Of a stretch of DNA of 64,000 bases, positions 37,259 to 64,000 are shown piece after piece (within the stretch, counting starts at the first letter, position 1; every line of letters begins with the position of its first letter). Source of the DNA: a virus (taxonomy: Duplodnaviria; Caudoviricetes). The notes beneath the pieces are model-generated. The model saw nothing but the letters and a program-made list of their open reading frames with translations. It made no database searches and had not been told where the DNA came from. Location: positions 160,001 through 224,000 of the IMG/VR virus record IMGVR_UViG_3300042892_002922; one strand, written 5' to 3'. The translations under genes were made by a program, and so were the position numbers.

Positions 37259-40200
37259 ATGGCAAACGAATTTAAAATTAAGAACGGACTCATTGTGTCC
37301 GGCTCTGCGGAAATTGAAAATAATTTAATCGTACATGGTACATTAACAGCGGATTTGGTAAACATCTCTCTTGTTAGTTCATCAGTACTTTATGAAAGTG
37401 GCTCAACCAAATTTGGTAACACTTCAGACGATTTTCATGAATTTACAGGTTCATTATCTATTAGTGGTTCGTTAAACATTAACGGAACATCTTATACTTC
37501 AGCAACAAGCGGAACATCAGGTACTTCTGGAACGTCTGGAACTAGTGGTTCATCAGGAACTGCCGGATCTAGTGGTACGTCAGGTACATCTGGAAGTTCA
37601 GGAACTGCTGGTACTTCGGGTTCTAGTGGCTCAAGCGGAACATCAGGAAGTTCAGGTTCTTCAGGGACGAGTGGAAGCTCAGGTACGTCTGGGTCTTCTG
37701 GTTCAAGTGGAACATCGGGAACGAGTGGGTCTTCAGGAAGTTCTGGTTCGTCAGGAACGAGTGGTACATCTGGTACTAGTGGCACGTCAGGTTCGTCAGG
37801 TAGTTCGGGGTCAAGTGGAACTTCAGGTTCTTCAGGTTCGTCTGGAACATCAGGAAGTTCGGGGTCTAGCGGAACGGCTGGTACTAGTGGAACATCAGGT
37901 TCTTCAGGTAGTTCTGGAACAAGTGGTAGTTCAGGGTCAAGTGGTACGTCTGGGACGAGTGGCACATCCGGGTCTTCAGGTTCTAGTGGCACATCAGGTA
38001 GTTCAGGTTCATCTGGAACAAGTGGCACTTCAGGTACGTCAGGGTCTTCTGGTTCTAGTGGTACATCAGGGTCTTCTGGTAGCTCAGGAACGTCAGGTTC
38101 TAGTGGTACTAGTGGTAGTTCAGGTTCTAGTGGAACATCAGGTTCTTCAGGTAGTTCTGGAACAAGTGGAACTTCTGGTACATCGGGATCAAGTGGATCT
38201 AGTGGAACATCGGGATCAAGTGGATCTAGTGGAACATCAGGTTCTTCGGGTTCAAGTGGTACCAGTGGTACATCTGGCTCTAGTGGATCTAGCGGTACTG
38301 TAACAATGACTGGAACACAAGATAACGGTATCTTAACACTTAATGGTTCCTCACCAAATGCTACAGTTGAAAGTAATCTAAGATTTGATGGCTCATTACT
38401 AACGGTTGTCGGCAATGAAACTATATCAGGTTCATTAATTGTTACAAACGACTTTACAGTATTAGGTTCTTCTTCAATATTATATGTAACATCATCACAA
38501 CTTAGAATTGCAGATAATATTATCACGGTTAACACTTCAAATCCAGGCGCCAGATTTGGTGGTTTAGAGGTATTTGATTCTGGTTCAATTAATAATGCCA
38601 CCGGATCAATTCTTTGGGATTCTGTTAATAACAGATGGATATATCAAAATTCAAGTGATGCTGGTTATGGTGGGGGTATGTTTTTATCTGGACCACGTAG
38701 TTCAGGGTCTTTAGGGTCTGAATTATCGTTAACAAGTGGTAAAATAGCAAAATCGGCAGGTGGTGACCATCTTGACGATTCAAATATAACTGATACGGGT
38801 ACTTTAGTATCAATAAATTCAAATACAGAAATAACAGGTACGTTAAGAGTAACTTCAAATTTATTTATTAACGGAACTTCATATACTGCTGCTACTTCAG
38901 GTACTTCGGGTACATCAGGTTCAAGTGGTACGTCTGGAACATCCGGTTCATCGGGAACTGCGGGTTCATCTGGAACATCAGGTTCCTCTGGGTCAAGCGG
39001 AACTTCAGGTTCTAGTGGGTCTAGTGGGACATCGGGTTCAAGTGGTACATCAGGTTCTAGTGGGTCAAGCGGAACTTCAGGTTCTAATGGCTCATCGGGA
39101 ACATCAGGAACAAGCGGAACCTCTGGTTCTTCTGGCTCTAGTGGTACATCGGGTAGTTCAGGGTCATCAGGTACTAGTGGAACGTCAGGTTCTTCTGGTA
39201 GTTCGGGGTCAAGTGGAACGTCAGGTTCTTCTGGTAGTTCGGGGTCAAGTGGAACGTCAGGTTCTTCTGGGTCAAGTGGCACTTCGGGATCAAGCGGGTC
39301 TAGTGGGACGTCAGGTTCTAGTGGTTCTAGCGGCACATCAGGCAGTTCTGGTTCTTCTGGTTCATCAGGTACTTCTGGCTCTAGCGGATCTTCTGGCACT
39401 TCAGGATCTAGTGGGTCTTCAGGAAGTTCTGGTTCATCGGGAACATCAGGTTCAAGCGGATCTAGTGGAACATCGGGGTCTAGTGGAAGTTCAGGAAGTT
39501 CTGGTTCTAGTGGGTCTTCAGGAAGTTCTGGTTCGTCAGGTTCTAGTGGGTCTTCTGGCACGTCTGGATCTAGTGGTTCATCAGGTTCATCAGGTTCATC
39601 AGGTTCATCAGGTTCATCGGGAAGTTCTGGTTCATCAGGCGCTGCAACAATTAATAGTAATGTAAACGATTATGTTTTAACAGCAACAGGAACCGCCGGA
39701 CTAATTCAAGGTGAATCAAATTTAACATTTGATGGTTCAACATTATCAACGAGTAACGTTACCGCTACTGGTACGTATAATACAAATGCGTCATCAAGTA
39801 GAAACAAATATAACGTTTATTCAACGGGTGCAAGTCCTTATGCTATTGGTATGCAATCGGCAATCACTTATGGTGGTTTAAATGACTGGGGAATGACCTT
39901 CCAATTTAATAACGACAGCGGTAGAGGATTCTGGTGGGGTGACGAAGGACATTCAACAGCACAAGGTGCTATGGCATTAACTACTGACGGTAGATTAACA
40001 GTGGCAAATAATGTTAGAATCGGTTATGGTGAATCTGACGTCACAACACCAACACTACCATTACAAGTATATGGTTCTGGTGGAACAATTGTTGACATTC
40101 AAGGTTCTAGTGGACAGTTATTCTCGGTAACAGATGATTTAACAGGTGACATATTCTCTATTTCAGATATATCAGGTATACCATTTATAAATGTTAACAC

Positions 40201-40453
40201 AACGAATGGTACTAGTTTTGGATATCATATATTCCCATCAGTTAACAATACCTATAACTTAGGTACATCAGCACTTAGATGGGCGAACGTTTATACGAAT
40301 GACTTACATTTAAGTAACGAAGGCAAAGAGGGTGGAAATGATATTGACGGAACAACAGGTAACTGGACAATTCAAGAAGGTGAAGAAAATCTGTATATTG
40401 TCAATAATAAGAATGGTAAGAAGTTCAAAATCAATTTAACCGAAATAGAATAA
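37259..40453 (+). CDS. Tail fibre protein with two Gly-X-Y (GSS/GTS) blocks
   Basis: Two long SGT/SGS tracts; C-terminal DLHLSNE...DGTTGNWTIQEGEENLY module seen in phage fibres. Confidence 0.8.
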   Translation: MANEFKIKNGLIVSGSAEIENNLIVHGTLTADLVNISLVSSSVLYESGSTKFGNTSDDFHEFTGSLSISGSLNINGTSYTSATSGTSGTSGTSGTSGSSGTAGSSGTSGTSGSSGTAGTSGSSGSSGTSGSSGSSGTSGSSGTSGSSGSSGTSGTSGSSGSSGSSGTSGTSGTSGTSGSSGSSGSSGTSGSSGSSGTSGSSGSSGTAGTSGTSGSSGSSGTSGSSGSSGTSGTSGTSGSSGSSGTSGSSGSSGTSGTSGTSGSSGSSGTSGSSGSSGTSGSSGTSGSSGSSGTSGSSGSSGTSGTSGTSGSSGSSGTSGSSGSSGTSGSSGSSGTSGTSGSSGSSGTVTMTGTQDNGILTLNGSSPNATVESNLRFDGSLLTVVGNETISGSLIVTNDFTVLGSSSILYVTSSQLRIADNIITVNTSNPGARFGGLEVFDSGSINNATGSILWDSVNNRWIYQNSSDAGYGGGMFLSGPRSSGSLGSELSLTSGKIAKSAGGDHLDDSNITDTGTLVSINSNTEITGTLRVTSNLFINGTSYTAATSGTSGTSGSSGTSGTSGSSGTAGSSGTSGSSGSSGTSGSSGSSGTSGSSGTSGSSGSSGTSGSNGSSGTSGTSGTSGSSGSSGTSGSSGSSGTSGTSGSSGSSGSSGTSGSSGSSGSSGTSGSSGSSGTSGSSGSSGTSGSSGSSGTSGSSGSSGSSGTSGSSGSSGTSGSSGSSGSSGSSGTSGSSGSSGTSGSSGSSGSSGSSGSSGSSGSSGSSGSSGTSGSSGSSGSSGSSGSSGSSGSSGSSGAATINSNVNDYVLTATGTAGLIQGESNLTFDGSTLSTSNVTATGTYNTNASSSRNKYNVYSTGASPYAIGMQSAITYGGLNDWGMTFQFNNDSGRGFWWGDEGHSTAQGAMALTTDGRLTVANNVRIGYGESDVTTPTLPLQVYGSGGTIVDIQGSSGQLFSVTDDLTGDIFSISDISGIPFINVNTTNGTSFGYHIFPSVNNTYNLGTSALRWANVYTNDLHLSNEGKEGGNDIDGTTGNWTIQEGEENLYIVNNKNGKKFKINLTEIE
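37507..38297 (+). repeat. Gly-Ser/Thr triplet repeat block 1 (about 260 aa)
   Basis: Gly at every third residue; synonymous codons heavily mixed. Confidence 0.9.
38893..39640 (+). repeat. Gly-Ser/Thr triplet repeat block 2 (about 250 aa)
   Basis: As block 1; includes exact 36-bp and 9-bp (GGTTCATCA) tandem units. Confidence 0.9.
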
Positions 40454-51728: not shown

Positions 51729-53144
51729 ATGGCGAAGAAAAAAATCAATAAGGGTGAGAATCCTTTATATGTTGAAACAAAAGACAAACTAGACAAAATA
51801 GGTCCGGGCATGTGTTTGGCAAAATGGACACAAGTTACGATACATTTACAAAATGGTCATAACCACTCTTGCCATCACCCTACGACTCATAAAATATCTG
51901 ATAAGGAAATTATAAGAAACCCATCAGCTCTACATAATACTCGATATAAGAAAGAGAAAAGAAGAGAAATGTTGGATGGTAAAAGACCTGAAGAATGTGA
52001 TTATTGCTGGAGCGTAGAAGATAACTCTGATAGATTCTCTGATCGTGTTTTCAAGTCAAGTGAGAAATGGTCTTTACCACACTATGATGCAATTGCAAAT
52101 TCTGACTGGAGAGATGACATCAACCCAAAGTATGTTGAGGTAGCATTTTCCAATGCGTGCAACTTTAAATGTTCATATTGCGCACCACAGTTCTCGTCAC
52201 AATGGACGGCTGAAATTGAAAAATTTGGTGGTTACAAAACAAGCACAAAGTTTAATGACCCAGAGCACATGTTAAGGGAAAACACCAAGCCGTTCTTACA
52301 TACGGATAGTAATCCATACGTTGATGCTTTTTGGAAATGGTGGCCGGATTTATATCGTGACTTATATACGTTTAGAATCACTGGAGGAGAACCGCTATTA
52401 TCAAAAGATACTTGGGGTGTTTTAGATTATATCATAGAACAAAAAGAACCAAATAGAGAATTGAATTTAGCTATTAATTCAAATCTAGGTGTGCCAGATA
52501 AATTGATAGATGAATTTATTGAAAAAATATCAAGAATTACCGAAGAAAATCGTGTAAAAGAATTTGTTATTTTCACATCATGCGATGCCTGGGGAGAACA
52601 AGCTGAGTACATTAGAAATGGTTTAGTGTTTAACAGGTTTTGGGATAATGTAAACAAAATACTTACTAAATGTCCTAGAGTAACTCTAACATTTATGGTG
52701 ACATATAATGCGTTATCTGTGTTCTCATTTAATAAGTTAATTAAAGGGGTCTATGATTTAAAAAACCAATATGGTTCCAATCAAAGATATTGGGATTCAG
52801 CGGTTTTCTTGGACACATCATACCTAAGATACCCATTCCATCAAGCAGTTCAAGTGTTGCCATATCAATTTTCTAATAATGTTTTAGAACAAGCAATTAA
52901 TGCTGAGTTCTTAGGTACATTGGAATTTACAAATGACTATATTGGTTACACCGATATTGAAATTCAAAAATTAAAAAGGACATATGATTGGATGATATCA
53001 CCACAAGATGCTAATAAACAAATGGCAAATAGAAAAGATTTTCACACGTTTTTTACTGAACATGATAGAAGACGTGGGACCGATTTCCTTAAAACCTTTC
53101 CAGAACTAGAAGAGTTCTATAACTTTTGTGGAACCATAAAATAA
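51729..53144 (+). CDS. Radical SAM protein with N-terminal SPASM/twitch-like Cys cluster
   Basis: CNFKCSYC, ITGGEPLL, INSNL; N-terminal CLAKW...SCHH...CDYCW. Confidence 0.88.
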   Translation: MAKKKINKGENPLYVETKDKLDKIGPGMCLAKWTQVTIHLQNGHNHSCHHPTTHKISDKEIIRNPSALHNTRYKKEKRREMLDGKRPEECDYCWSVEDNSDRFSDRVFKSSEKWSLPHYDAIANSDWRDDINPKYVEVAFSNACNFKCSYCAPQFSSQWTAEIEKFGGYKTSTKFNDPEHMLRENTKPFLHTDSNPYVDAFWKWWPDLYRDLYTFRITGGEPLLSKDTWGVLDYIIEQKEPNRELNLAINSNLGVPDKLIDEFIEKISRITEENRVKEFVIFTSCDAWGEQAEYIRNGLVFNRFWDNVNKILTKCPRVTLTFMVTYNALSVFSFNKLIKGVYDLKNQYGSNQRYWDSAVFLDTSYLRYPFHQAVQVLPYQFSNNVLEQAINAEFLGTLEFTNDYIGYTDIEIQKLKRTYDWMISPQDANKQMANRKDFHTFFTEHDRRRGTDFLKTFPELEEFYNFCGTIK

Positions 53145-53149
53145 TAACT

Positions 53150-53884
53150 ATGAATTTAACAGTTAAACATAAGAAACCGTATTCAATTGTTCCATTAGAC
53201 AAATACAATATTTGTAAATACACCGCAAACCCTGTAATGAATGAAAAATCTTACACGTTATTTGTTGATGTTAAAATAAATAAAGATGAGTGTGATAAAG
53301 AAGCTGGAATAATTGTTAGACCAGGTATGCACGCTGGGTTTTTATTTGCACAACCTAATCTTCTAAAGTTTGGTTTCTGGTTTTTTAAAAACGATGAACC
53401 AATTTATAAAGAGGTTTTCAAATTATTAACTGACGATGATTTTGATGAACATTTGTTTTGTGTAGCAACCGATGACGCAGATACAAAGATTATAAAAGTA
53501 TACGTTAATAGCAATTTAATTGGTGAGATTGATTACAGTGAATATGATAGAAAACACAGCTACGTTGGTACACCTTATTATTTTGGTGTTGCTAATCCAT
53601 TCTTAGTTGCTAGACCTTTTGATTATTATGGTTCATTTAATTATAGATTTGCGGGTTTATTAGATGTGGTTGTTGACGATATTGAGGAATTAAAACAAAT
53701 ACAGGAGCACATTACAGTACATCCAAGATTAGAATATAATATCTTCAAAGAAGATTATAAATATAAACCAAATTTTGTATTTTACTTTGATTTTGAAAAC
53801 CAAAGCAATTACAAGGTCTGGGATGTTTCTGAGAACAATAATTTTCTATGCAGGATTTTAGATAGAGACAATAATTTAATTTAA
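53150..53884 (+). CDS. Stand-alone LamG-like domain protein
   Basis: KVYVNSNLIGE, YYFGVANP; resembles the GT7 insertions; ATG at 53150. Confidence 0.5.
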   Translation: MNLTVKHKKPYSIVPLDKYNICKYTANPVMNEKSYTLFVDVKINKDECDKEAGIIVRPGMHAGFLFAQPNLLKFGFWFFKNDEPIYKEVFKLLTDDDFDEHLFCVATDDADTKIIKVYVNSNLIGEIDYSEYDRKHSYVGTPYYFGVANPFLVARPFDYYGSFNYRFAGLLDVVVDDIEELKQIQEHITVHPRLEYNIFKEDYKYKPNFVFYFDFENQSNYKVWDVSENNNFLCRILDRDNNLI

Positions 53885-53892
53885 TATATTTT

Positions 53893-54522
53893 ATGATTAA
53901 GAATTTAGAACAATACAAAATTGTTAAAGACCCACAATATACCAAAGAAGATTTGGTTAATTTTGAAACCTTAATTAGTGAACACTGGGAAGGTGGTAAG
54001 ATTAGAGGACCAGTGCATTTATCTGACGGTAACGAAGAACCGTTAATTGAAATTTTTAAAAGAGTAAAAAAAACCGACTGGGTATTTTCAACTTGGCGAT
54101 CACACTACCATGCATTACTCAAAGGTATTTGTCCTGTTTGGTTAGAAGAAGAAATCTTGGCCGGTAAGTCAATTACTATTTGTAACATACCAGAAAGATT
54201 TTACGCATCAGCAATCGTTGGCGGTATACTACCAATCGCTTTAGGTGTTGCAAAAGGAATTAAAATGAGTGGTGGAGATGAAAAGGTTTGGTGTTGTATT
54301 GGTGATATGACATTTGAAAGTGGATTATTTTATGAAGTCCACAAATACGCTAGACGTTTTGATTTACCATTGCACTTTATTGTTGAGGATAATGATAAAT
54401 CAACCAACACACCTACATTATCAACGTGGAAAGAAAAACGCGAATTACCAGATGATGTGATATATTACAAATATGAATCAAAATACCCTCATTATGGAAC
54501 TGGAAAGTGGATTAACTTTTAA
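53893..54522 (+). CDS. ThDP-dependent dehydrogenase E1 alpha-like subunit (short)
   Basis: GPVHLSDGNEE, STWRSHYHAL, IGDM...EDN ThDP-binding motif; 209 aa. Confidence 0.85.
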   Translation: MIKNLEQYKIVKDPQYTKEDLVNFETLISEHWEGGKIRGPVHLSDGNEEPLIEIFKRVKKTDWVFSTWRSHYHALLKGICPVWLEEEILAGKSITICNIPERFYASAIVGGILPIALGVAKGIKMSGGDEKVWCCIGDMTFESGLFYEVHKYARRFDLPLHFIVEDNDKSTNTPTLSTWKEKRELPDDVIYYKYESKYPHYGTGKWINF

Positions 54523-55885
54523 AATAGCTTATGACTATTGGAATCCAATTACAAATATGCCCTTCCCTAACGGATGGGCAAAATTTTTAAGAGAGGATTT
54601 TATTGAAAATGGTAAGCACAACCCACAGTACCAATATTCATCAACACATAGCGAACTTAACAATCAGTTTAAGTATAGAAATAGAGAAGACGTTGGTGGA
54701 ATCCACATCATAACCGAAAAATATGACGAGGATATCACCTATTTCTATTTACTAGAGGGTGTGGGATGTGATTTCCGCCTTTTCATGGATATTAGTCAGG
54801 ATAATCGATATAGCACACTCCTTATTAAAAATATGAGCCCTAAGGCGCTTAAAATGGCTCAGGATGGGCAGTTAAAAATTGTTATTAACTATTCACACGA
54901 ACCTATAGGTGATGATTTGTTATTTGACCTAATTGGTGAGTTCTGTTCTAGAAATGGAATACTAGAAGAAAATATTATGTTTTTCACTGGATGTATGAAT
55001 ATCAATCATTTGTGTCAACAAAGTTTATCAAAATACAAGTTTAAAGTTTATACGGATAATGTTGTTATGTCAACTTCTGGACAATCACTTAGGAATCTGA
55101 TGGATGGCGGAAAACATAACGAATTAAACTATGAAACGACCTTAATAACGGAATCTGAAATTAAAACAGACGTTAGAGATAAACATTTTATTTGTTTAAA
55201 TAGAAATAGCCATAAAGGACATCGATTAAATCTTGGATTGTTTGTTGAAAGTGAAAATCTATGGGATAAATTCTATATTAGTTTTTTAGAGGATCTTAAA
55301 TCACATGATAGAATCCATAACACCACACACGGGTTTAGAAATATGGAGTTTAGAAATCGATTACTAGACGCATTACCTGATTTTATAAAAAAAACACCAT
55401 TAGAGCTTGATACACAATCACTTAATGATGAACAAAGAATGTGTTTTAGTGTTGTGAGAGCGTATCGTAAAGATTTATATCTGAACAGTTACATTTACGT
55501 GGTTACAGAAACCAAATTTGATAAACATATCTATTTTTCAGAGAAAATCTGTAATCCAATGATAGTTCTACAACCGTTTATTGTATTTGGCGCTGCACAC
55601 TTCTTAAAATACCTTAAAAAACTTGGATTCAAAACATTTAGTCCGTTTATCGATGAGACATATGATGATGAAGAAAATGACGAAAAAAGATTGATGTTAC
55701 TATGTAATTTAATCAAAAAATTAAGTAAATTGGATAGGTTAGAAATACATGAATGGTATAACTCTATCAAGGACATATTAGTCCATAATAGAACCTTACT
55801 TTATCAAATGTCGTTCAATAATAACTTCGAAAATAGGTTTATAGAAACTTTAAATTATGAAAAAAATATTAGTAACAGGGTGTAA
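54494..55885 (+). CDS. Putative glycosyltransferase, remote GT10-like
   Basis: YLNSYIYVVTET...SEKICNPM...QPFIVFG C-terminal motif; paralog of 61272. Confidence 0.45.
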   Translation: MELESGLTFKIAYDYWNPITNMPFPNGWAKFLREDFIENGKHNPQYQYSSTHSELNNQFKYRNREDVGGIHIITEKYDEDITYFYLLEGVGCDFRLFMDISQDNRYSTLLIKNMSPKALKMAQDGQLKIVINYSHEPIGDDLLFDLIGEFCSRNGILEENIMFFTGCMNINHLCQQSLSKYKFKVYTDNVVMSTSGQSLRNLMDGGKHNELNYETTLITESEIKTDVRDKHFICLNRNSHKGHRLNLGLFVESENLWDKFYISFLEDLKSHDRIHNTTHGFRNMEFRNRLLDALPDFIKKTPLELDTQSLNDEQRMCFSVVRAYRKDLYLNSYIYVVTETKFDKHIYFSEKICNPMIVLQPFIVFGAAHFLKYLKKLGFKTFSPFIDETYDDEENDEKRLMLLCNLIKKLSKLDRLEIHEWYNSIKDILVHNRTLLYQMSFNNNFENRFIETLNYEKNISNRV

Positions 55886-57761
55886 CGGTTTGGTAGGTAC
55901 ACATTTAGTTAAGAAATGCACAAACATGGGCTATGACGTTATTGGTGTAGACATTACCCCAGTAACCAATTTACAAAATGTAAATAACTTTAAGTTTATC
56001 CAAGCGGATTTAACGAAAGGAGATGTCATTGAGCAAATTTTTAATGAAAATAACTTAGATGCAGTGTTTAACACTTTTGGTGTTAAAGGTTCACCGTTAA
56101 AGGCGAAAAATCAGCCAGTATCTTTTTTATATCCATCATTTAAAATTAACACAGAGATTATTAACCAATGTGCTAAAAAACAAATTTGGTTAGTGTTTGT
56201 AAGTTCTGTTGGGGTATATGCACCTGCTGAAAAATTTGTTGAGGATACCGTATGGAGCACTTTACCATCTGATGCGGATTGGTTCCCATCTTGGAGCAAA
56301 AGAATGGGTGAACTTTTATTAGAAGCATATAAGGTTCAATACAATTATAATAATTGGGCTATTATTCGCCCAGCAAATATTTTTGGTGAGTATGATGATT
56401 TTGAAGGTAACGGAACAGTAATTGCATCCACAATTAAAAAGGTATTTGAAGCTAATAATGAAATTGAAGCATGGGGCGATGGTACACCAATCAGAGATTT
56501 TGTATATGCTGGTGATGTTGCAGATGCTATTATAGATTTATACTTAAACGACAAGCGCATCACAGTTAACTTCGGTGCCGGTGAAGAAATTACTATCAAA
56601 CAAATGATTGATACCGTTATCAAGGTAAGCGGTAAATCGTTGGCTGTTAAATGGGATTCAAGTAAACCTAATGGTGATATGAGAAGACAAATGGATATCA
56701 CCAAACAAAAGGAAAATAATTTATTACCAAAATTAGGTTTTGAAAATGCGATAAGTGAAACCTATTCACATTATAAAAAAACACAACAAATGATAACTAA
56801 AAATTCTAAGATACTAATCACCGGTGGATCTGGATTAGTGGGCCAAAACTTAACCAATAAATTAGTTAGTGAGGGCTACAGAGATATTCGCGTAACAATA
56901 CACAGAAAAATGCCAAGAATACAACATCCTAATGTTGAATATCTAATGATTGATTTAGAAACAAGAGAAGGTGCTTTAGAAGCCACTAAAAATGTTGATG
57001 CGGTGTTTCATTGCGCGGCATCCACATCTAATGCGGTAGATACTGTTGTTGATCCGTTGGCGCACGTTACACCGAATGTGGCGATGAATAATTTTCTTAT
57101 TGACGCCGCCTGGAGAAATAAAGTTAAAAAATATATCTTCTTATCGTCAAATACAATATACCCACCAAAAGGTGATGAACCAGTGGTTGAAACCGATTTT
57201 GTATTCAGTGACATTTACCCAGTTTATTTCCCAGTCGGTTGGATGAAAAGATATGCGGAAATTCAATGTGAATTATATTCCAAATACCTACCAGAAAAGA
57301 TGGTTACAGTTATTGTTAGACCAGCAAATCTTTTTGGACCACATGACAAATATGATTTCAATAAATGTCATGTAACACCAGCAACAATCAGAAAGGTTGC
57401 AGATAAACTGAATCCAATACCAGTATGGGGTGATGGGTTAGAAGTTAGAGATTTATTATTCATTGATGACTTTGTTGACGCGTTATTATTAATCTTAGAG
57501 AAACAAGAAACACACGATGTGTTCAATGTTGGTTCAAATAAGGGGTATACCGTAAATGATGTGTTAACAACAATGAAAAACATTGCAGAATATGATGCAC
57601 CAATTGAATATGTTCAAGGAAAACCATCAATGATTCCTGTTAGATATATTGATTCAAATAAAATTAATAAAGTACTTGGTTGGGAACCTAAAACAGAACT
57701 ATCTGTTGGACTTAAAAAGGCGTACGATTGGTATTTAACAAATAGAGAAGAATTTAATTAA
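55857..57761 (+). CDS. Tandem double NAD-dependent epimerase/dehydratase (GDP-L-fucose synthase-like x2)
   Basis: Two complete extended-SDR units: TGCNGLVG...RPANIFG...WGDGTPIRDF and TGGSGLVG...RPANLFG...WGDGLEVRDL. Confidence 0.88.
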   Translation: MKKILVTGCNGLVGTHLVKKCTNMGYDVIGVDITPVTNLQNVNNFKFIQADLTKGDVIEQIFNENNLDAVFNTFGVKGSPLKAKNQPVSFLYPSFKINTEIINQCAKKQIWLVFVSSVGVYAPAEKFVEDTVWSTLPSDADWFPSWSKRMGELLLEAYKVQYNYNNWAIIRPANIFGEYDDFEGNGTVIASTIKKVFEANNEIEAWGDGTPIRDFVYAGDVADAIIDLYLNDKRITVNFGAGEEITIKQMIDTVIKVSGKSLAVKWDSSKPNGDMRRQMDITKQKENNLLPKLGFENAISETYSHYKKTQQMITKNSKILITGGSGLVGQNLTNKLVSEGYRDIRVTIHRKMPRIQHPNVEYLMIDLETREGALEATKNVDAVFHCAASTSNAVDTVVDPLAHVTPNVAMNNFLIDAAWRNKVKKYIFLSSNTIYPPKGDEPVVETDFVFSDIYPVYFPVGWMKRYAEIQCELYSKYLPEKMVTVIVRPANLFGPHDKYDFNKCHVTPATIRKVADKLNPIPVWGDGLEVRDLLFIDDFVDALLLILEKQETHDVFNVGSNKGYTVNDVLTTMKNIAEYDAPIEYVQGKPSMIPVRYIDSNKINKVLGWEPKTELSVGLKKAYDWYLTNREEFN

Positions 57762-58798
57762 TGAAATACGTACTAACATCTGGATGCTCATTTACTAGGA
57801 TAGGTTTCTTTAACGGAATGTCAGTTACTAGTGATTTTAAACAAATCCACAAACAAGGCAATCCTAACCTTTTTAAATGGACTGATTGGTTACAAGAATC
57901 ATTGGGTGAGGAGTATTCTGTAATCAACCTAGCGTCACAAACAAATGATAATGTTACAATCTCTAGAACAATATTTTATTGGGTTAACGAGTTAATGAGT
58001 AAGGGTGTTAACCCAGAAGATATTCATGTGATTATTCAATGGAGCACACCACAAAGAACCAATTTTTATGTACCAAAGGATAAATTGCCGAGAGGTAAAG
58101 AATACTATGGACATACTAGTCATTATTTAAAAAATGATGACATATATGACAATGGTGTTTTTTATTTGAGTGGTGGATTTAATTTACAAGATGCTAGTGA
58201 GAAGTTTAAAATTAGAGAATTATTAAAGGAGTACATCTATTATTATGGCAGTGATAGAGGTATGGTTAATCAAACGCTTGCTTGGTTGGAAAACTGGTCA
58301 AATCTTAAATTATTTTTTGATAAACATAAGATAAAAAATAACTACATTTCAATGTGTGATATTTTATCTGAATCTATGCAAAGAACTGGTTTTGGATTTT
58401 ACGCTGGACTTAAAGAGCACGAGTTTGAACGCGCTGTTTTGGATGAGAAACTAATTGCAGATACAAGCAAGGATCAATGTTGGTTAGAACAGAATGAGTT
58501 ATTTAGACCGTATATAAATAACATAGGGCTATATGATGATTTTTGGTTATTTAAAACGCCTACACACAAGTATGGTGGATTATTAGAATGGACAATAAAA
58601 AATTATGATAAGGTTAATCTAGAAAAATACGTTAATTTTAACGAACACCAATTAGATGTTACAATCTATGAAGAATGTATTCAACAGAAAATTAATGAAA
58701 GAGATTATTTAAAATCCGGAAGATGGTACGGACATACATCATCAATAATGGCTAGAAAATTTGTAATTGAGGAATTACTACCAACATTAAATTTGTAA
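57761..58798 (+). CDS. SGNH/GDSL-hydrolase-like hypothetical protein
   Basis: LTSGCSFT block I-like motif, NLASQTNDN, C-terminal GHTS. Confidence 0.5.
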   Translation: MKYVLTSGCSFTRIGFFNGMSVTSDFKQIHKQGNPNLFKWTDWLQESLGEEYSVINLASQTNDNVTISRTIFYWVNELMSKGVNPEDIHVIIQWSTPQRTNFYVPKDKLPRGKEYYGHTSHYLKNDDIYDNGVFYLSGGFNLQDASEKFKIRELLKEYIYYYGSDRGMVNQTLAWLENWSNLKLFFDKHKIKNNYISMCDILSESMQRTGFGFYAGLKEHEFERAVLDEKLIADTSKDQCWLEQNELFRPYINNIGLYDDFWLFKTPTHKYGGLLEWTIKNYDKVNLEKYVNFNEHQLDVTIYEECIQQKINERDYLKSGRWYGHTSSIMARKFVIEELLPTLNL

Positions 58799-58800
58799 AA

Positions 58801-59577
58801 ATGAATACATTAATTGAAAATGGTTACATAATCGAAGATGCTAAAGATTTACTATCTGAAGAACATTTTAAAGAATTAGACACGTTATGTGATTCCATCA
58901 GTACATCCGAAAAAAAATACACAAAATTCTATGAATTTGAATATTGTTTTACAAAAGAAGACACAAGTTATTTTGGTTTAACTGGCGAAAATTCTAGTGT
59001 TAAATTTGTAGATAAAATTGATGTTGGTGATAGTCCAGAAAAAAAATTTTCAGTTAAAATGAAAAAAAAACTAATTCAAAAATACTTTGATTCGGTGCAA
59101 ACATATGCTGAAAGTTTTTATGAAATAGATAGGTTTTCTTATTTATGTGATAAAATGTCACATGCAATTGCTGACAAATATTATTCACATATTTTTAATT
59201 TAGATAATTTTAGAAAAAAAGAAATACACAGCACCACTAAAAGGATTGCAACATATGATGAAGATTGTCATATTGCTAAACATAAAGATGGTTTTAACAA
59301 TAAAAGGTTATTTGTTATTTTAGTATACCTAAATAAAGAATGGGAAGATACCAATGGTGGAGATTTAGTTATTTACTCTAAAAACAATGATAAAATTTCA
59401 TTAACACCAAAAGCCCCAAGCGTTTGTGTTTTAGATTTCACAAAAAATAATTTAGAACATGAGGTGTTAAAAGTTATAGATGGTACAAGATACACATATG
59501 TGTCTTTTTATGAGGTGTCAGAATCTTTAATGATAACAGACGAATGGAAAAAACACAAGATAAAAAAAATGATATAA
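58801..59577 (+). CDS. 2OG-Fe(II) oxygenase (prolyl 4-hydroxylase-like)
   Basis: HKD, ILVYLNKEW...GGDL, HEV and RY motifs. Confidence 0.82.
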   Translation: MNTLIENGYIIEDAKDLLSEEHFKELDTLCDSISTSEKKYTKFYEFEYCFTKEDTSYFGLTGENSSVKFVDKIDVGDSPEKKFSVKMKKKLIQKYFDSVQTYAESFYEIDRFSYLCDKMSHAIADKYYSHIFNLDNFRKKEIHSTTKRIATYDEDCHIAKHKDGFNNKRLFVILVYLNKEWEDTNGGDLVIYSKNNDKISLTPKAPSVCVLDFTKNNLEHEVLKVIDGTRYTYVSFYEVSESLMITDEWKKHKIKKMI

Positions 59578-60761
59578 TGACAGAAACATTTTGCCCACTA
59601 CCATTTATTCATTTTAACGCATATCCAGACAAACAAATTAAACCTTGTTGCTACTCGCAATCATTTTTTGAAAATACCACATTAAAAAATCAAGATATTG
59701 TTACCGCTTTTAATTCTGAAGAATACCAGAAACTACGAAATGATTTACTAAATGGCGTTGAACACAAGTTCTGTGATGTTTGTTGGAAAACAGAAAAAAA
59801 TGGTGGAGAAAGCCAAAGAATTAAATGGTCAAAATTTTATGAAGATAAAAAAGAAGATATTATTGAAAGAACACAAGAAGATGGATATTACCAACCCGAC
59901 TTTGTTTCGTTAGATTTAAGACCTTCAAATATATGTAATTTCAAGTGCAGAACTTGTACCCCAGATTTTTCAACAACTTGGATTGATGAGAGAACAAAAT
60001 TTAGGGAAATTATGGGTAACGATGTTATAGATTATAAAACACAAGTTACATCATTTGATATTCCGCAAGAAAACATCAATAATCTAGAGAAAATCTATTT
60101 TGCTGGTGGTGAACCTTTATATATGGATGATATGTATAAGTTTATTGACAAGATTAAAAATAAAGAAAAGGTTGAATTATACTTTAACACGAATTTCAGT
60201 ATAATAAAACATAAAAATAAATCTGTTTTTGATTTATTTAAAGATTTCAAAAAAGTACATATTGGAATATCCTGCGATGGATACGGACCTATTGGTGAAT
60301 ATGTTAGAACCAATTTTAAATGGGAAACATTTAAAGAGAATGTGTATAAATTGGGTAATGCAATAAACAACGGCGCCAATTTTTCATATGGTTTTCAATA
60401 TACATCATCAATACTTAATTGTTTTCATTTTTTTGACTTCAGAGATATGTTATATGATATAAAATTCATATCAAATGATGGGCAATTACAATTTGGTGTT
60501 GCTGAGTATCCATTTTGGTTGAATCCAGCACATTTTGATTTAAAAGATGAGGTTATCACATATTTTGAGGGTAAAATAGATACGATACAAAATGATTCAC
60601 TGCGCACCGAGTTGAACAATTATATAATTTACTTGAAAACCTTCAATGACCCTCATTTTTATGCCTTGAATTATTTAAAAAATTTCATTAAATTAGGTGA
60701 TGAGACCAATAACACGGTTTTACCAGAAGAATTAACATATCTAAAAAAATATCTTATATGA
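59577..60761 (+). CDS. Radical SAM protein with N-terminal SPASM/twitch-like Cys cluster
   Basis: CPLPF...PCC...CDVCW; CNFKCRTC; FAGGEPL; NTNF. Confidence 0.88.
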   Translation: MTETFCPLPFIHFNAYPDKQIKPCCYSQSFFENTTLKNQDIVTAFNSEEYQKLRNDLLNGVEHKFCDVCWKTEKNGGESQRIKWSKFYEDKKEDIIERTQEDGYYQPDFVSLDLRPSNICNFKCRTCTPDFSTTWIDERTKFREIMGNDVIDYKTQVTSFDIPQENINNLEKIYFAGGEPLYMDDMYKFIDKIKNKEKVELYFNTNFSIIKHKNKSVFDLFKDFKKVHIGISCDGYGPIGEYVRTNFKWETFKENVYKLGNAINNGANFSYGFQYTSSILNCFHFFDFRDMLYDIKFISNDGQLQFGVAEYPFWLNPAHFDLKDEVITYFEGKIDTIQNDSLRTELNNYIIYLKTFNDPHFYALNYLKNFIKLGDETNNTVLPEELTYLKKYLI

Positions 60762-61279
60762 CCTACAAAGACGAATTAACTAGAGCCATGACATATATTG
60801 GAGAACAAGAAAACAGTGTCTTCATGGGGCAATCTGTGGCTTTCCCTGGTACATCATTATACAGTACATTAACAAATGTATCTAAAGAAAAATTAATCGA
60901 ATTTCCAGTACTAGAAGAAACACAAACAGGGGTTGCGTTAGGTATGAGTTTAACCGATAAATGTGTAGTGTCAATTTACCCAAGATGGGACTTTTTAATA
61001 TTGGCAACTAATCAATTAGTAAACCACATAGATAAGTTTGAATTGATGACAGGACACGCACCACACGTAATCATTAGAGTTGGTGTTGGTAGCACAAACC
61101 CATTGGACCCAGGACATCAACATAAAGCAGATTATACCGAAGCATTTAAATTATTAATGCAACAAGTAGAGGTTGTAAATTTAACTGAAGCAAATCAAGT
61201 TTTTGATACGTATAAAAGGGCGTACGATAATAAAAAACCAATAATCATTTGTGAATACCCCGACCTATACAATGCATAG
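60758..61279 (+). CDS. ThDP-dependent dehydrogenase E1 beta/transketolase pyrimidine-binding subunit (no C-terminal domain)
   Basis: FMGQSV, EFPVLEETQTGVALGMS, DFLILATNQL, GHQH; 173 aa. Confidence 0.85.
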   Translation: MTYKDELTRAMTYIGEQENSVFMGQSVAFPGTSLYSTLTNVSKEKLIEFPVLEETQTGVALGMSLTDKCVVSIYPRWDFLILATNQLVNHIDKFELMTGHAPHVIIRVGVGSTNPLDPGHQHKADYTEAFKLLMQQVEVVNLTEANQVFDTYKRAYDNKKPIIICEYPDLYNA

Positions 61280-62633
61280 ACCAACTTTTGGATACGATAT
61301 TATAACACCCAGAGGTGAATTACCTAATGGACTTGATCCTGCTAGGTTTAAATTCATCTATGACCAAGTTAAATGGAATTTTAGGGAGATATTATATTTT
61401 AATAGTTTAGACACTAATCCAGTTTATTTAGCTGGGCACTTTGACCACAAAATAATTAAAAAAAGTGTTTATGAAATCCACAAAAATAGACAACAAGGTA
61501 TAAACGAAGTATGGTATTATACAATAGAACCATTTGGTAATTTCAGAGGATTTTTGGGTCTGTTAAATGGTAAAGTGGATGATGAATTCACTATACATAT
61601 GTCAGATATTGCAAAACACGAAATAATCTCAGGGAACGGTCGTTTATTGATCAATTACACTATTGATGGGGGTATCGATGTTAATAGAAACACAATAACT
61701 AAATTGTTTGAACTTTTAAAAGCAACAAACATCCCATTTCGTAAGATTTACTTTCTTATGAATGATATTAATTTTAAAGGTAATCTTGAAAAAATTAGTG
61801 GGATTCAAAATTTAAATGTGTTTCATTTTAATTTAGCGTTGATGCAAAAGTCAAATGAAATATATAATACATTATTACATGAAGGTCGTTATTTCTTTTG
61901 GAAAAATAATACTTCATTTGTTTCCAAAGTTACACGTATTGAAGATTTCGAATTAAATTTAACCAAAAAGGATAAGAAATTTTTGATGTTAAATCGTAAC
62001 TGGAAGATGCATAGATTGGAGTTAATTAAAACACTCAGGGATAACGGTTTATTGGAAGATTCATTGGTATCGTGGGATAAGAATATGGTTAGCCACAGCG
62101 AAGCAAGAGCATTTATTGAAAAATATGACGATACCGAGTTAATGGAAATCATGAAGAACGAATCATCGATTTTAGATTATCCAGATATCGCAAATGTTCA
62201 TGGTTATGGTTTTGAAACAAAAGAAATATACTTACAAAGTTTTTTTCATATTGTTGGTGAAACTATTTATTATCAAGATGACACACCATCTGGATACGTT
62301 TCAGAAAAACCGTTTAAACCAATGGCACACTTTCAACCATTTATATTTGCGGGACCGGCCGGTGTTATTAAACATTTGAATGAATTAGGTTTTAAATCTT
62401 TTCATCCATATATTGATGAAACATATGATTCGATTACGGATGATAATGAGAGAATGAAAGCAATTAGTAACGAAGTCATTCGTCTAGGTAAACTAACTAA
62501 AGATGAGATGATTGATATTACGATGAAATTAAAAAGTGTTTTATACCACAACTATAGGATGCTATTTAATATTGGGTCACCAAAGCTCCAAGACGATAAT
62601 AGAAATAACGTAATTGAATTTTTAAATAAGTAA
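61272..62633 (+). CDS. Putative glycosyltransferase, remote GT10-like (paralog of 54494)
   Basis: YLQSFFHIVGET...GYVSEKPFKPM...QPFIFAG; ATG at 61272. Confidence 0.45.
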   Translation: MHRPTFGYDIITPRGELPNGLDPARFKFIYDQVKWNFREILYFNSLDTNPVYLAGHFDHKIIKKSVYEIHKNRQQGINEVWYYTIEPFGNFRGFLGLLNGKVDDEFTIHMSDIAKHEIISGNGRLLINYTIDGGIDVNRNTITKLFELLKATNIPFRKIYFLMNDINFKGNLEKISGIQNLNVFHFNLALMQKSNEIYNTLLHEGRYFFWKNNTSFVSKVTRIEDFELNLTKKDKKFLMLNRNWKMHRLELIKTLRDNGLLEDSLVSWDKNMVSHSEARAFIEKYDDTELMEIMKNESSILDYPDIANVHGYGFETKEIYLQSFFHIVGETIYYQDDTPSGYVSEKPFKPMAHFQPFIFAGPAGVIKHLNELGFKSFHPYIDETYDSITDDNERMKAISNEVIRLGKLTKDEMIDITMKLKSVLYHNYRMLFNIGSPKLQDDNRNNVIEFLNK

Positions 62634-64000
62634 TGAGTTATATAATTGGGATATCGGCATACTATCACGATTCTTCAGCTTGTTTGTTGAAGGATGGCGA
62701 ATTGTTGTTTGCATGTGAAGAAGAAAAATTCACAGGTATAAAACATGATAGTTCATTCCCAAATAAAACCATTGAATACATCTTTAAAAAGTATAATTTA
62801 ACTAAAAAAGATATTGAGGCGGTATGTTATTATGAAGATTTAGATTTAAAAGTACAAAGAGTTATTAATAATTCAAAAAAAGTTTTCCTTAAGACACCAA
62901 TATATTCTATTAAGAGTGTATATAATGTTTTAAAGAACAAAAAAGATGTTAAGAAGAATTTAGCAAAAATATCTGATAAAGTTTTCTACTCTAAACATCA
63001 CGACTCACATACATACTATTCATTTTATACATCACCATTTAATGACGCTGTTGTTTTATCGGTTGATGGTGTTGGTGAAAGTGAAACAATACAAATTGCC
63101 ACAATCTATAATAATAAGTTATATCAAATACCACACACAGAATACCCAAACTCATTAGGGTTATTTTATTCTGCTATGACATCTTTCTTAGGGTTTAAAC
63201 CCAATGAAGGTGAATATAAAGTAATGGGTTTGGCATCTTATGGAAACCCTAAAAAATATAGACAAAAAATAGATTCATTAATTTCATACAAACAAGGGTT
63301 TTTAACTTGCAATATGGATTGTTTTGTTTGGGATAGAAGTGACAAGGTTATGTTCAACCATAATCTATCAAAAAAATTAGGGATTGAAAATAGATTACCA
63401 GATGAAAAACTAACAGTACAACATCACGATTTAGCGGCCGCGGTTCAAGAAACCTACGAGGTTATTTTAAGTAAAATACTAGAAGAGATATCAATATTAA
63501 CTAACACTAGAAATTTATGTCTTAGCGGTGGCTGTGCTTACAACGGATCAGCAAATGGAAAGTTAACAAATAACGGTTGGTTTAAAAATTTATGGATACC
63601 TCCAGCACCATCTGATGCAGGATCGGCTATTGGTGCGTGTTTAAATTATCTGGACACTAATAATAAACTAACAAAAAAGATTGACACAACACCGTTCTTA
63701 GGCCCAGAATACACTAATGAGGAATACTTGTCGGTTATCGATGAAGAAATAGTGAGATACAGTGAAATAAGTAGAGAAAAACTATTAAAATTAATTTCTA
63801 CCGAATTATATAATGGCAAAGTTGTTGGATGGTTCCAAGGTAAAATTGAATTTGGTTCTAGAGCATTGGGTAACAGGTCGATACTAGCAAATCCAATGAT
63901 AATTGGTATGCAAAAGAAGATTAATCGTGTTATAAAGAAGCGAGAACTTTTTAGACCATTTGCACCTATGGTGACAAAAGAAAATCAAACAAAATATTTT
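62633..64000 (+). CDS. Carbamoyltransferase (NodU/CmcH family), 3' truncated by window edge; missed by ORF track
   Basis: YHDSSACL, KHD, HHDSH, SVDGVGE, SLGLFYS, GEYKVMGLA, GGCAYN, PSDAGSAIG, EFGSRALGNRSIL, KRELFRPFAP. Confidence 0.92.
   Translation, partial: MSYIIGISAYYHDSSACLLKDGELLFACEEEKFTGIKHDSSFPNKTIEYIFKKYNLTKKDIEAVCYYEDLDLKVQRVINNSKKVFLKTPIYSIKSVYNVLKNKKDVKKNLAKISDKVFYSKHHDSHTYYSFYTSPFNDAVVLSVDGVGESETIQIATIYNNKLYQIPHTEYPNSLGLFYSAMTSFLGFKPNEGEYKVMGLASYGNPKKYRQKIDSLISYKQGFLTCNMDCFVWDRSDKVMFNHNLSKKLGIENRLPDEKLTVQHHDLAAAVQETYEVILSKILEEISILTNTRNLCLSGGCAYNGSANGKLTNNGWFKNLWIPPAPSDAGSAIGACLNYLDTNNKLTKKIDTTPFLGPEYTNEEYLSVIDEEIVRYSEISREKLLKLISTELYNGKVVGWFQGKIEFGSRALGNRSILANPMIIGMQKKINRVIKKRELFRPFAPMVTKENQTKYF

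Follow-up and report, generated by a model that had tools for sequence, protein, structure and literature searches.

The locus described here raises the question of why a phage would carry what look like the two subunits of a pyruvate dehydrogenase (PDH) E1 component in the middle of its sugar genes. It lies in a 64,000-nt stretch of the Caudoviricetes record IMGVR_UViG_3300042892_002922 (positions 160,001 to 224,000; hereafter the window) and comprises a gene for an E1 alpha-like protein of 209 aa (alpha; 53893-54522, plus strand) and a gene for an E1 beta-like protein of 173 aa without a C-terminal domain (beta; 60758-61279, plus strand), which are 6,235 nt and five genes apart. A first-pass annotation of the sequence had described this pair and proposed that it is a carboligase forming a C-branched sugar rather than a metabolic PDH. 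The description of the two genes and of their separation was confirmed. With regard to function, we consider an acyl-branching carboligase for nucleoside diphosphate (NDP)-activated 4-keto sugars the best reading of the sequence data, at a probability of roughly 0.55.

The domain composition of both proteins is strongly reduced. Alpha consists of the thiamine diphosphate (ThDP) diphosphate-binding (PP) domain, i.e., the N-terminal half of E1 alpha only, and matched PF00676 (E1_dh; E 2.2e-10) at no more than profile positions 6-168 of 300. The match to the PDH E1 alpha model TIGR03182 (E 7e-22) reached 77.7 bits at a cut-off of 394, and the closest solved structure was that of human PDH E1 alpha (E 4e-9). 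Beta matched solely PF02779 (Transket_pyr; E 4.7e-9, profile positions 5-168 of 174), the ThDP pyrimidine-binding (Pyr) domain; no Transketolase_C domain was found in a Pfam search, and members of the beta family are 170-185 aa long throughout. The metal- and diphosphate-binding motif of alpha, G137-D138-M ... E165-D166-N167, is spaced as in human E1 alpha, and the GD(M/G) ... (D/N)N motif, H42, R69 and H71 (YR.H) are conserved across 16 members of the family. In beta, the cofactor-activating glutamate E53 and H122 (PGxQH motif) are invariant in 21 members. The ThDP/Mg motif and the activating glutamate of E1 enzymes are therefore both present, while an alpha subunit of full length (about 320-370 aa) and the Transketolase_C domain of beta are missing. 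The C-terminal half of E1 alpha provides active-site loops and the histidine used in reductive acylation, and the Transketolase_C domain of E1 beta binds the E2 core. Judged by these residues, alpha and beta form a real, conserved and minimal ThDP enzyme, the catalytic residues of which appear intact.

Both proteins align to one and the same protein of cyanophage S-SM2, SSM2_198 (402 aa): alpha (P0001) to residues 1-201 (40% identity, E 2e-49) and beta (P0002) to residues 234-398 (32% identity, E 4e-24). The same fused gene is carried by cyanophage P-TIM68, and a further ~55 fused proteins of 380-415 aa occur in metagenomes. Co-folding, a check named in the first-pass annotation, gave a predicted alpha-beta complex with a score of 0.85 in three runs, while none of three controls exceeded 0.00. 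Of the calibration pairs, 51 of the 78 solved and 2 of the 108 mismatched ones came up to this mark, and the score expresses likeness rather than proof of binding because solved E1 structures may have aided the pass. The most likely explanation is that the two open reading frames (ORFs) are the halves of one minimal E1-type ThDP enzyme made up of a PP and a Pyr domain and no other part, which would most likely assemble as alpha2beta2. A fold search with a model of a fused homolog (pLDDT 82) returned the general E1-beta/transketolase/DXS superfamily only and did not discriminate. In S-SM2 and P-TIM68, a gene for a zinc-type alcohol dehydrogenase (L001:7987-8997 and L002:7994-9010) is located directly 5' of the fused ThDP gene within a heptose-activation cluster, and a class II aldolase gene lies near the fused gene in S-SM2. 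One alpha homolog of 553 aa (P0365) has ~340 extra N-terminal residues including a LAGLIDADG_3 homing-endonuclease domain, which may represent an intein or an endonuclease fusion.

The first-pass annotation had described the pair as split. A comparison of 84 related loci (80 from IMG/VR and four from other assemblies) showed that the split is not intrinsic. Beta was found in 74 of these, always downstream of alpha and on the same strand, and of the ten loci in which beta is missing, nine run into a contig end no more than 7 kb past alpha. The gap between the two genes ranged from -28 nt to 8.9 kb and fell into groups of -28 to +19 nt (~16 loci), ~1.2 kb, 1.7-2.2 kb and 5-9 kb. Adjacent and split loci are interleaved on the tree, the adjacent L024 and L031 standing beside L003 (5.4 kb) and L010 (1.9 kb), and in cellular genomes alpha and beta are adjacent nearly everywhere. 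The genes within the gap are drawn from one pool comprising a glycosyltransferase family 10 (GT10)-like family, short-chain dehydrogenases/reductases (SDRs), DUF6071 proteins, radical S-adenosylmethionine (SAM) enzymes and 2-oxoglutarate (2OG) oxygenases. Rather than being a property of the enzyme, the 6.2-kb separation reflects a slot that is bounded by alpha and beta as its conserved ends and takes up variable sugar-tailoring genes. A reversed order, beta followed by alpha on the minus strand with ~1 kb between them, was observed in a 735-kb uncultured phage (LR756501.1, 322608-324811).

The genes accompanying the pair in its relatives point to a role in sugar modification. Among 67 informative viral loci (at least 6 kb of upstream sequence), 64 carry exactly one enzyme that generates a 4-keto sugar, either a Cj1427-like SDR (48/67) or a 4,6-dehydratase resembling GDP-mannose 4,6-dehydratase (GMD; 16/67), and never both kinds; the remaining three are cut short on the downstream side. 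The GMD-like dehydratase (PF16363, E 2.6e-73; TIGR01472, E 3e-46) occurs in loci without the Cj1427-like SDR. The latter matched the structures PDB 6VO6/6VO8 (E 1e-105); in view of the reference list of PMC10680097, we take 6VO6 to be Cj1427 of Campylobacter jejuni, although a literature search on the code returned nothing relevant. Cj1427 is a GDP-heptose C4-dehydrogenase (PMC10680097). In addition, an RmlC-like epimerase gene is present in 57 of the 67 loci and usually overlaps the start of alpha, so that the simplest viral cassette reads Cj1427-like SDR, RmlC-like epimerase, alpha, beta and carbamoyltransferase. DegT-fold genes, present at 16 viral and 26 cellular loci, have the 3-dehydrase RfbH as best family match (E 7e-62 to 9e-64). 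An alignment of five of them, three viral and two cellular, showed an invariant histidine within the motif SF..GH.ITT.EGG at the position where aminotransferases have the pyridoxal phosphate (PLP) lysine. The RfbH match and the histidine in place of the PLP lysine therefore mark the products as predicted ColD/RfbH-like C3-dehydratases, which would make 3-deoxy-4-keto sugars, and not as aminotransferases. The first-pass annotation had assumed a 6-deoxyhexose as acceptor. This may apply to the 16 loci with a GMD-type dehydratase; in most relatives the sugar, as far as the Cj1427-like C4-dehydrogenase indicates, is likely a GDP-heptose instead.

The alpha family is large, with more than 7,600 database matches of mostly 203-210 aa, and no paper describing it was found in the literature searched. 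Some members are located on contigs of up to 363 kb, and the size of the contigs carrying relatives (230-363 kb) suggests jumbo phages. A genome scan with an 8-sequence alignment as query showed cellular carriers among Pacearchaeota, Woesearchaeota, Nanoarchaeota, Paceibacteria and other bacteria of the candidate phyla radiation (CPR), as well as in Pelagibacteraceae, Nanopelagicus, Methylopumilus, Omnitrophota and others, and 57 cellular loci were compared. Some copies from metagenome-assembled and single-amplified genomes (SAGs) may be viral contigs. On a 2.1-Mb chromosome (L132), GmhA, a Cj1427-like SDR, an HddA-like kinase, alpha, beta and a His-type dehydratase follow each other in this order. 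The closest cellular relative of the viral alpha clade is located on a Pelagibacteraceae SAG contig (L133), and the window has a G+C content of ~31%; both observations hint, if weakly, at a host of the SAR11 type or at an exchange of genes with such an organism.

Support for the carboligase reading is indirect: the gene set of the relatives follows the logic of yersiniose synthesis. According to this reading, the ThDP pair would decarboxylate a 2-oxo acid, by default pyruvate. The acyl-anion equivalent left on ThDP would then be joined to the carbonyl at C4 of a 4-keto sugar in nucleotide-activated form; in the relatives, this acceptor may be either a GDP-4-keto-(3-deoxy)-heptose or a GDP-4-keto-(3,)6-deoxyhexose. 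The product would be a C4-acyl-branched sugar with a tertiary alcohol. SDRs, the 2OG oxygenase, radical SAM enzymes and the carbamoyltransferase encoded nearby could then tailor the branched sugar, and the GT10-like transferases could place it on phage fibre proteins. Carboligation, donor, acceptor and product are all inferred. We also considered that the pair might help to recycle the Cj1427-like enzyme, a process that depends on alpha-ketoglutarate. This idea was rejected, as the link of the pair to GMD-type cassettes is just as strong and these cassettes do without an external oxidant.

Similar E1-like pairs are known from antibiotic synthesis. Genetic evidence links AviB1/AviB2 of avilamycin synthesis to the C4 acetyl branch of eurekanate, and Pau11/Pau12 of paulomycin synthesis to that of paulomycose (PMC4425429, PMC4753412). 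These systems share with the present one a two-subunit E1-type ThDP enzyme encoded among sugar-tailoring genes with neither E2 nor E3 seen beside it, the proposed use of pyruvate as C2 donor onto a 4-keto sugar, and a non-haem iron oxygenase nearby, which is AviO2 in the former (PMC4425429) and a 2OG or PhyH oxygenase in the latter. In contrast, they belong to actinomycete antibiotic clusters with a TDP-deoxyhexose context, whereas the present family occurs in phages, DPANN archaea, CPR bacteria and oligotrophs and its context is that of a GDP-heptose or GDP-hexose. A second comparison concerns YerE, which ligates a C2 unit from pyruvate onto a 3-deoxy-4-keto NDP-sugar in yersiniose synthesis (PMC9306805), and the further single-chain carboligases ErwE and MyGE for yersiniose and longer acyl-branched sugars. 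There, a 4-keto generator and an RfbH/ColD-type C3-dehydratase are followed by the ThDP enzyme and a reductase (PMC9306805), and the 4-keto generators and RfbH/ColD-type genes counted above in the relatives match this arrangement. However, YerE is a single-chain, acetolactate-synthase-like flavoprotein with another domain order, while the present enzyme has an E1-like fold in two chains; both would be functional analogues and not homologues within one family. The relatives also resemble the capsular heptose system of C. jejuni (C4-dehydrogenase Cj1427, C3/C5-epimerase Cj1430, C4-reductase Cj1428 and the C3-dehydratase of HS:5), as they encode close homologs of the C4-dehydrogenase, RmlC-type epimerases, GDP-fucose-synthase-like reductases and His-type C3-dehydratases. 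Enzymatic preparation of candidate acceptors is described in PMC10680097, namely of GDP-4-keto-heptose (Cj1427 plus alpha-ketoglutarate), GDP-3-deoxy-4-keto-heptose (with the HS:5 C3-dehydratase in addition), GDP-4-keto-6-deoxymannose (GMD) and GDP-4-keto-3,6-dideoxymannose (GMD plus ColD). The C. jejuni pathways have no described ThDP enzyme, the word "thiamine" occurring zero times in PMC10680097, and the ThDP pair is the added element here.

Several observations weigh against a carboligase. Compared by published lengths, the 209 and 173 aa of alpha and beta are far below those of the full-length Pau11 and Pau12 (325 and 345 aa; PMC4425429). The first-pass proposal of a C-branched-sugar carboligase is backed by the comparative genomics of the relatives, but not by the window locus itself: in both the window and L167 (92% identical), Cj1427-like, GMD-like, RmlC-like and ColD-like genes are all absent as far as the sequence extends. 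Cellular and cyanophage loci also encode GmhA and a heptose kinase, and this co-occurrence therefore keeps an earlier role, at the level of sugar phosphates, as a rival. Moreover, the complex prediction may echo the model's memory of solved E1 structures, and the recurrent fusions of Pyr domains to radical SAM enzymes hint at chemistry outside the carboligase model.

The role assigned to the SDR between the two genes was also reconsidered. The fusion noted in the first-pass annotation is present as a protein of 634 aa (55857-57761, plus strand) with two extended SDR domains of the GDP-fucose-synthase type. These matched NF047922 below its cut-off (E 7.7e-39 for the N-terminal and 3.3e-46 for the C-terminal domain), and the closest solved structures were GDP-fucose synthetase, nearest to both domains, GDP-mannose 3,5-epimerase and UDP-glucose 4-epimerase. 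In L003, two separate SDR genes correspond to the fusion, with 71% and 48% identity. At the position of the YxxxK motif, both domains and several homologs have P-S-W-S-K-R and P-V-G-W-M-K-R; judged by alignment, the catalytic tyrosine seems to be replaced. The proposal that this SDR reduces the keto group of the branch is unsupported because both domains, which resemble C4 epimerase/reductases, appear to lack this tyrosine.

Instead of acting on nucleotide-activated sugars, the pair might be a mini-transketolase or DXS-like enzyme working on sugar phosphates, which would form a ketose phosphate (sedoheptulose-7-phosphate or higher) feeding the GmhA/kinase/nucleotidyltransferase route to an NDP-heptose. 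The cellular gene order GmhA, Cj1427-like SDR, HddA-like kinase, alpha and beta (L132, L106) fits such a role, as do the GHMP kinase (27/57) and SIS isomerase genes (16/57) of the cellular loci and the position of the cyanophage fused genes among genes for a phosphoheptose isomerase, a kinase and a nucleotidyltransferase. In addition, metabolically reduced DPANN archaea or CPR bacteria make up many of the carriers, and transketolase and DXS were also returned by the fold search. However, the E1 alpha hidden Markov model (HMM) matched alpha far more strongly (E 7e-22) than those of DXS (E 1.4e-4) and transketolase (E 1.4e-3), and while transketolase and DXS combine PP, Pyr and C-terminal domain in one chain, the present enzyme consists of two chains that lack a C-terminal domain. 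Among the viral loci, a GHMP kinase or an L132-type SIS gene occurs in 0/84 and a GmhA-like gene in 6/84, whereas a 4-keto generator is present in 64/67. The pair also belongs to GMD-type (hexose) cassettes in which no heptose precursor is needed, and hosts such as Pelagibacteraceae and Synechococcus are generally expected to own an ordinary transketolase. We therefore regard this role as unlikely.

The fusions of the Pyr domain bear on another explanation, by which a ThDP decarboxylase passes an acyl group or an aldehyde on to another partner, e.g., a radical SAM enzyme or, by acyl transfer, a sugar hydroxyl or amine, without direct ligation to the 4-keto sugar. Pyr domains were found fused to a SPASM radical SAM enzyme (P0265), to B12-binding radical SAM enzymes (P0334, P0339) and to a Methyltransf_24 domain (P0164), and the twitch-domain radical SAM gene of the window overlaps the start of beta by 4 nt. 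In L003, a 233-kb relative, a stand-alone lipoyl domain of 75 aa with an ETDKA motif (L003:5069-5296; PF00364, E 3e-18) is encoded immediately 5' of a twitch radical SAM enzyme of 474 aa. However, a lipoyl gene occurs in this 1 of 84 loci only, the simplest cassettes have no radical SAM genes, and erroneous gene calls on short contigs may account for some of the fusions. We also know of no precedent for a ThDP decarboxylase supplying such a partner, and consider this explanation improbable. Pyr domains are likewise fused to the GT10-like family in proteins of 577-591 aa in L021, L024 (10644-12377) and L027, and P0129 and P0151 are also listed among the Pyr-domain fusion proteins. As a group, these fusions point to a possible functional coupling beyond the alpha subunit.

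The last alternative is a true E1. With heterotetrameric E1 enzymes (PDH, branched-chain keto acid dehydrogenase (BCKDH), acetoin dehydrogenase) the pair shares the fold, the cofactor motifs and the closest sequence and structure matches, but not the E2-docking domain, the C-terminal half of alpha or a nearby lipoyl partner gene. The first-pass statement that the window holds no E2 or E3 stands for E2, as tblastn with a lipoyl domain and a lipoyl-E2 gave no match in the 64-kb window; E3 was not specifically searched for. No lipoyl or E2 match was obtained in 83 of the 84 related loci either. A tree of 81 PP domains (quick search, midpoint root; fragments below 150 aa and five rows of odd length left out) placed the minimal family, 68 viral, cellular and fused rows, in one clade (SH-aLRT 93). 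Eight long fused E1s formed a separate group on a long branch (support 100), and a lipoyl-E2 gene lies directly 3' of three of them (L147, L153, L154); full-length E1-like proteins of Bacteriovoracaceae (305-316 aa; L144, L146, L151, L158), encoded near SDR genes, also fall outside the minimal clade. That the pair is not a metabolic PDH, as had been suggested there, is well supported by these comparisons, because the reductive-acylation and E2-docking domains are absent and the clade is apart from lipoyl-E2-linked E1s. An auxiliary metabolic 2-oxoacid dehydrogenase E1 using E2 and E3 of the host is thus very unlikely even though JGI pipelines label homologs "pyruvate dehydrogenase E1 component alpha subunit" and PDH and BCKDH E1 are the closest solved structures, given the partial alpha profile, the truncated beta, the missing lipoyl partner in the window, the separate clade and the position of the pair among sugar genes in all ~140 loci. 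A mini-dehydrogenase with its own lipoyl carrier, an idea taken from the L003 lipoyl domain, was likewise rejected as a general explanation, as this gene is restricted to that locus and none is present in the window.

Directly behind alpha, the slot of the window begins with a 470-aa protein (54473-55885, plus strand) of a virus-only family without a Pfam match. Its Atlas neighbours are all Uroviricota, and those nearest clusters for which a Pfam family is given point to Glyco_transf_10 (0.80), a lead only. A paralog of 460 aa, identified by tblastn, is encoded directly behind the slot (61251-62633, plus strand), its start overlapping beta by 29 nt; it is weakly similar (E 2e-8) to the C-terminal part of the Pyr-domain fusion P0129. 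Members of the family are ~400-480 aa long, have a C-terminal (I/V)(T/S)EK block reminiscent of GT10 fucosyltransferases and, in Atlas clusters, also occur as fusions with SDR and with methyltransferase domains. By these features, they probably represent an unrecognised glycosyltransferase family. The SDR fusion is followed, all on the plus strand, by a DUF6071-like protein of 345 aa (57761-58798; PF19547, E 1.9e-4; Atlas feature score 0.96 to viral DUF6071 clusters), a 2OG-Fe(II) oxygenase (58801-59577; PF13640, E 1.5e-11) and the twitch-domain radical SAM enzyme preceding beta (59544-60761; NF033640, E 3.1e-87, above the cut-off).

The slot is part of a glycan operon of 17 ORFs, which run in one direction from 46398 to the window end with intergenic gaps of -50 to +8 nt; a scan of this operon for promoters and terminators gave no more sites than expected by chance. 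Just upstream of alpha, a twitch radical SAM enzyme of 471 aa and a 252-aa protein without an assigned function are encoded (51729-53884, plus strand). The former is 71% identical to the radical SAM enzyme of L003, which matches NF033640 (E 7e-104), and the same gene order upstream of alpha is present in L167. At the other end, the window cuts off an O-carbamoyltransferase gene of the NodU/TobZ type (62633-64000, plus strand; PF02543, E 1.1e-60; PF16861, E 2.3e-25), and a carbamoyltransferase gene is located directly 3' of beta in many related loci. The operon lies 3' of genes for a collagen-like tail fibre and for C1q-like and LamG-domain proteins. The tail-fibre gene (37259-40453, 1064 aa) coincides with a local G+C peak of 0.44 compared to ~0.31. 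The phage origin of the window is indicated by tail-fibre and structural PHROG matches upstream of the operon, by the occurrence of the same genes in the 80 IMG/VR loci and by Atlas clusters that are 100% Uroviricota. No near-identical DNA was found in the phage collection searched. The nearest record (G001) ends at ~43,367 of the window, short of the glycan island.

The family is a much reduced form of E1-type ThDP enzymes. We tentatively extend the carboligase reading, with somewhat less confidence than for the pair itself, to the whole minimal PP and Pyr family (~380 aa; split, adjacent or fused), which might be a common C-acyl branching enzyme for GDP-4-keto-heptoses and -hexoses in aquatic jumbo phages, cyanophages, DPANN archaea, CPR bacteria and free-living oligotrophs, its alpha and beta genes in phages also anchoring a hypervariable tailoring slot. 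If true, it would be the smallest known E1-type ThDP enzyme and would form tertiary alcohols on sugars, a reaction of current interest in biocatalysis (PMC12247030, PMC9306805). A gene labelled "pyruvate dehydrogenase E1 alpha" by annotation pipelines would gain a function, and it would be wrong to count the more than 7,600 matching metagenomic proteins as central-carbon auxiliary genes. As two cultured cyanophages, S-SM2 and P-TIM68, carry the fused form, the prediction is testable now. C-branched heptoses or deoxyhexoses would then decorate phage fibres and the cell surfaces of DPANN archaea and CPR bacteria, and C-branched higher sugars would be a widespread feature of virions and of the surfaces of very small cells.

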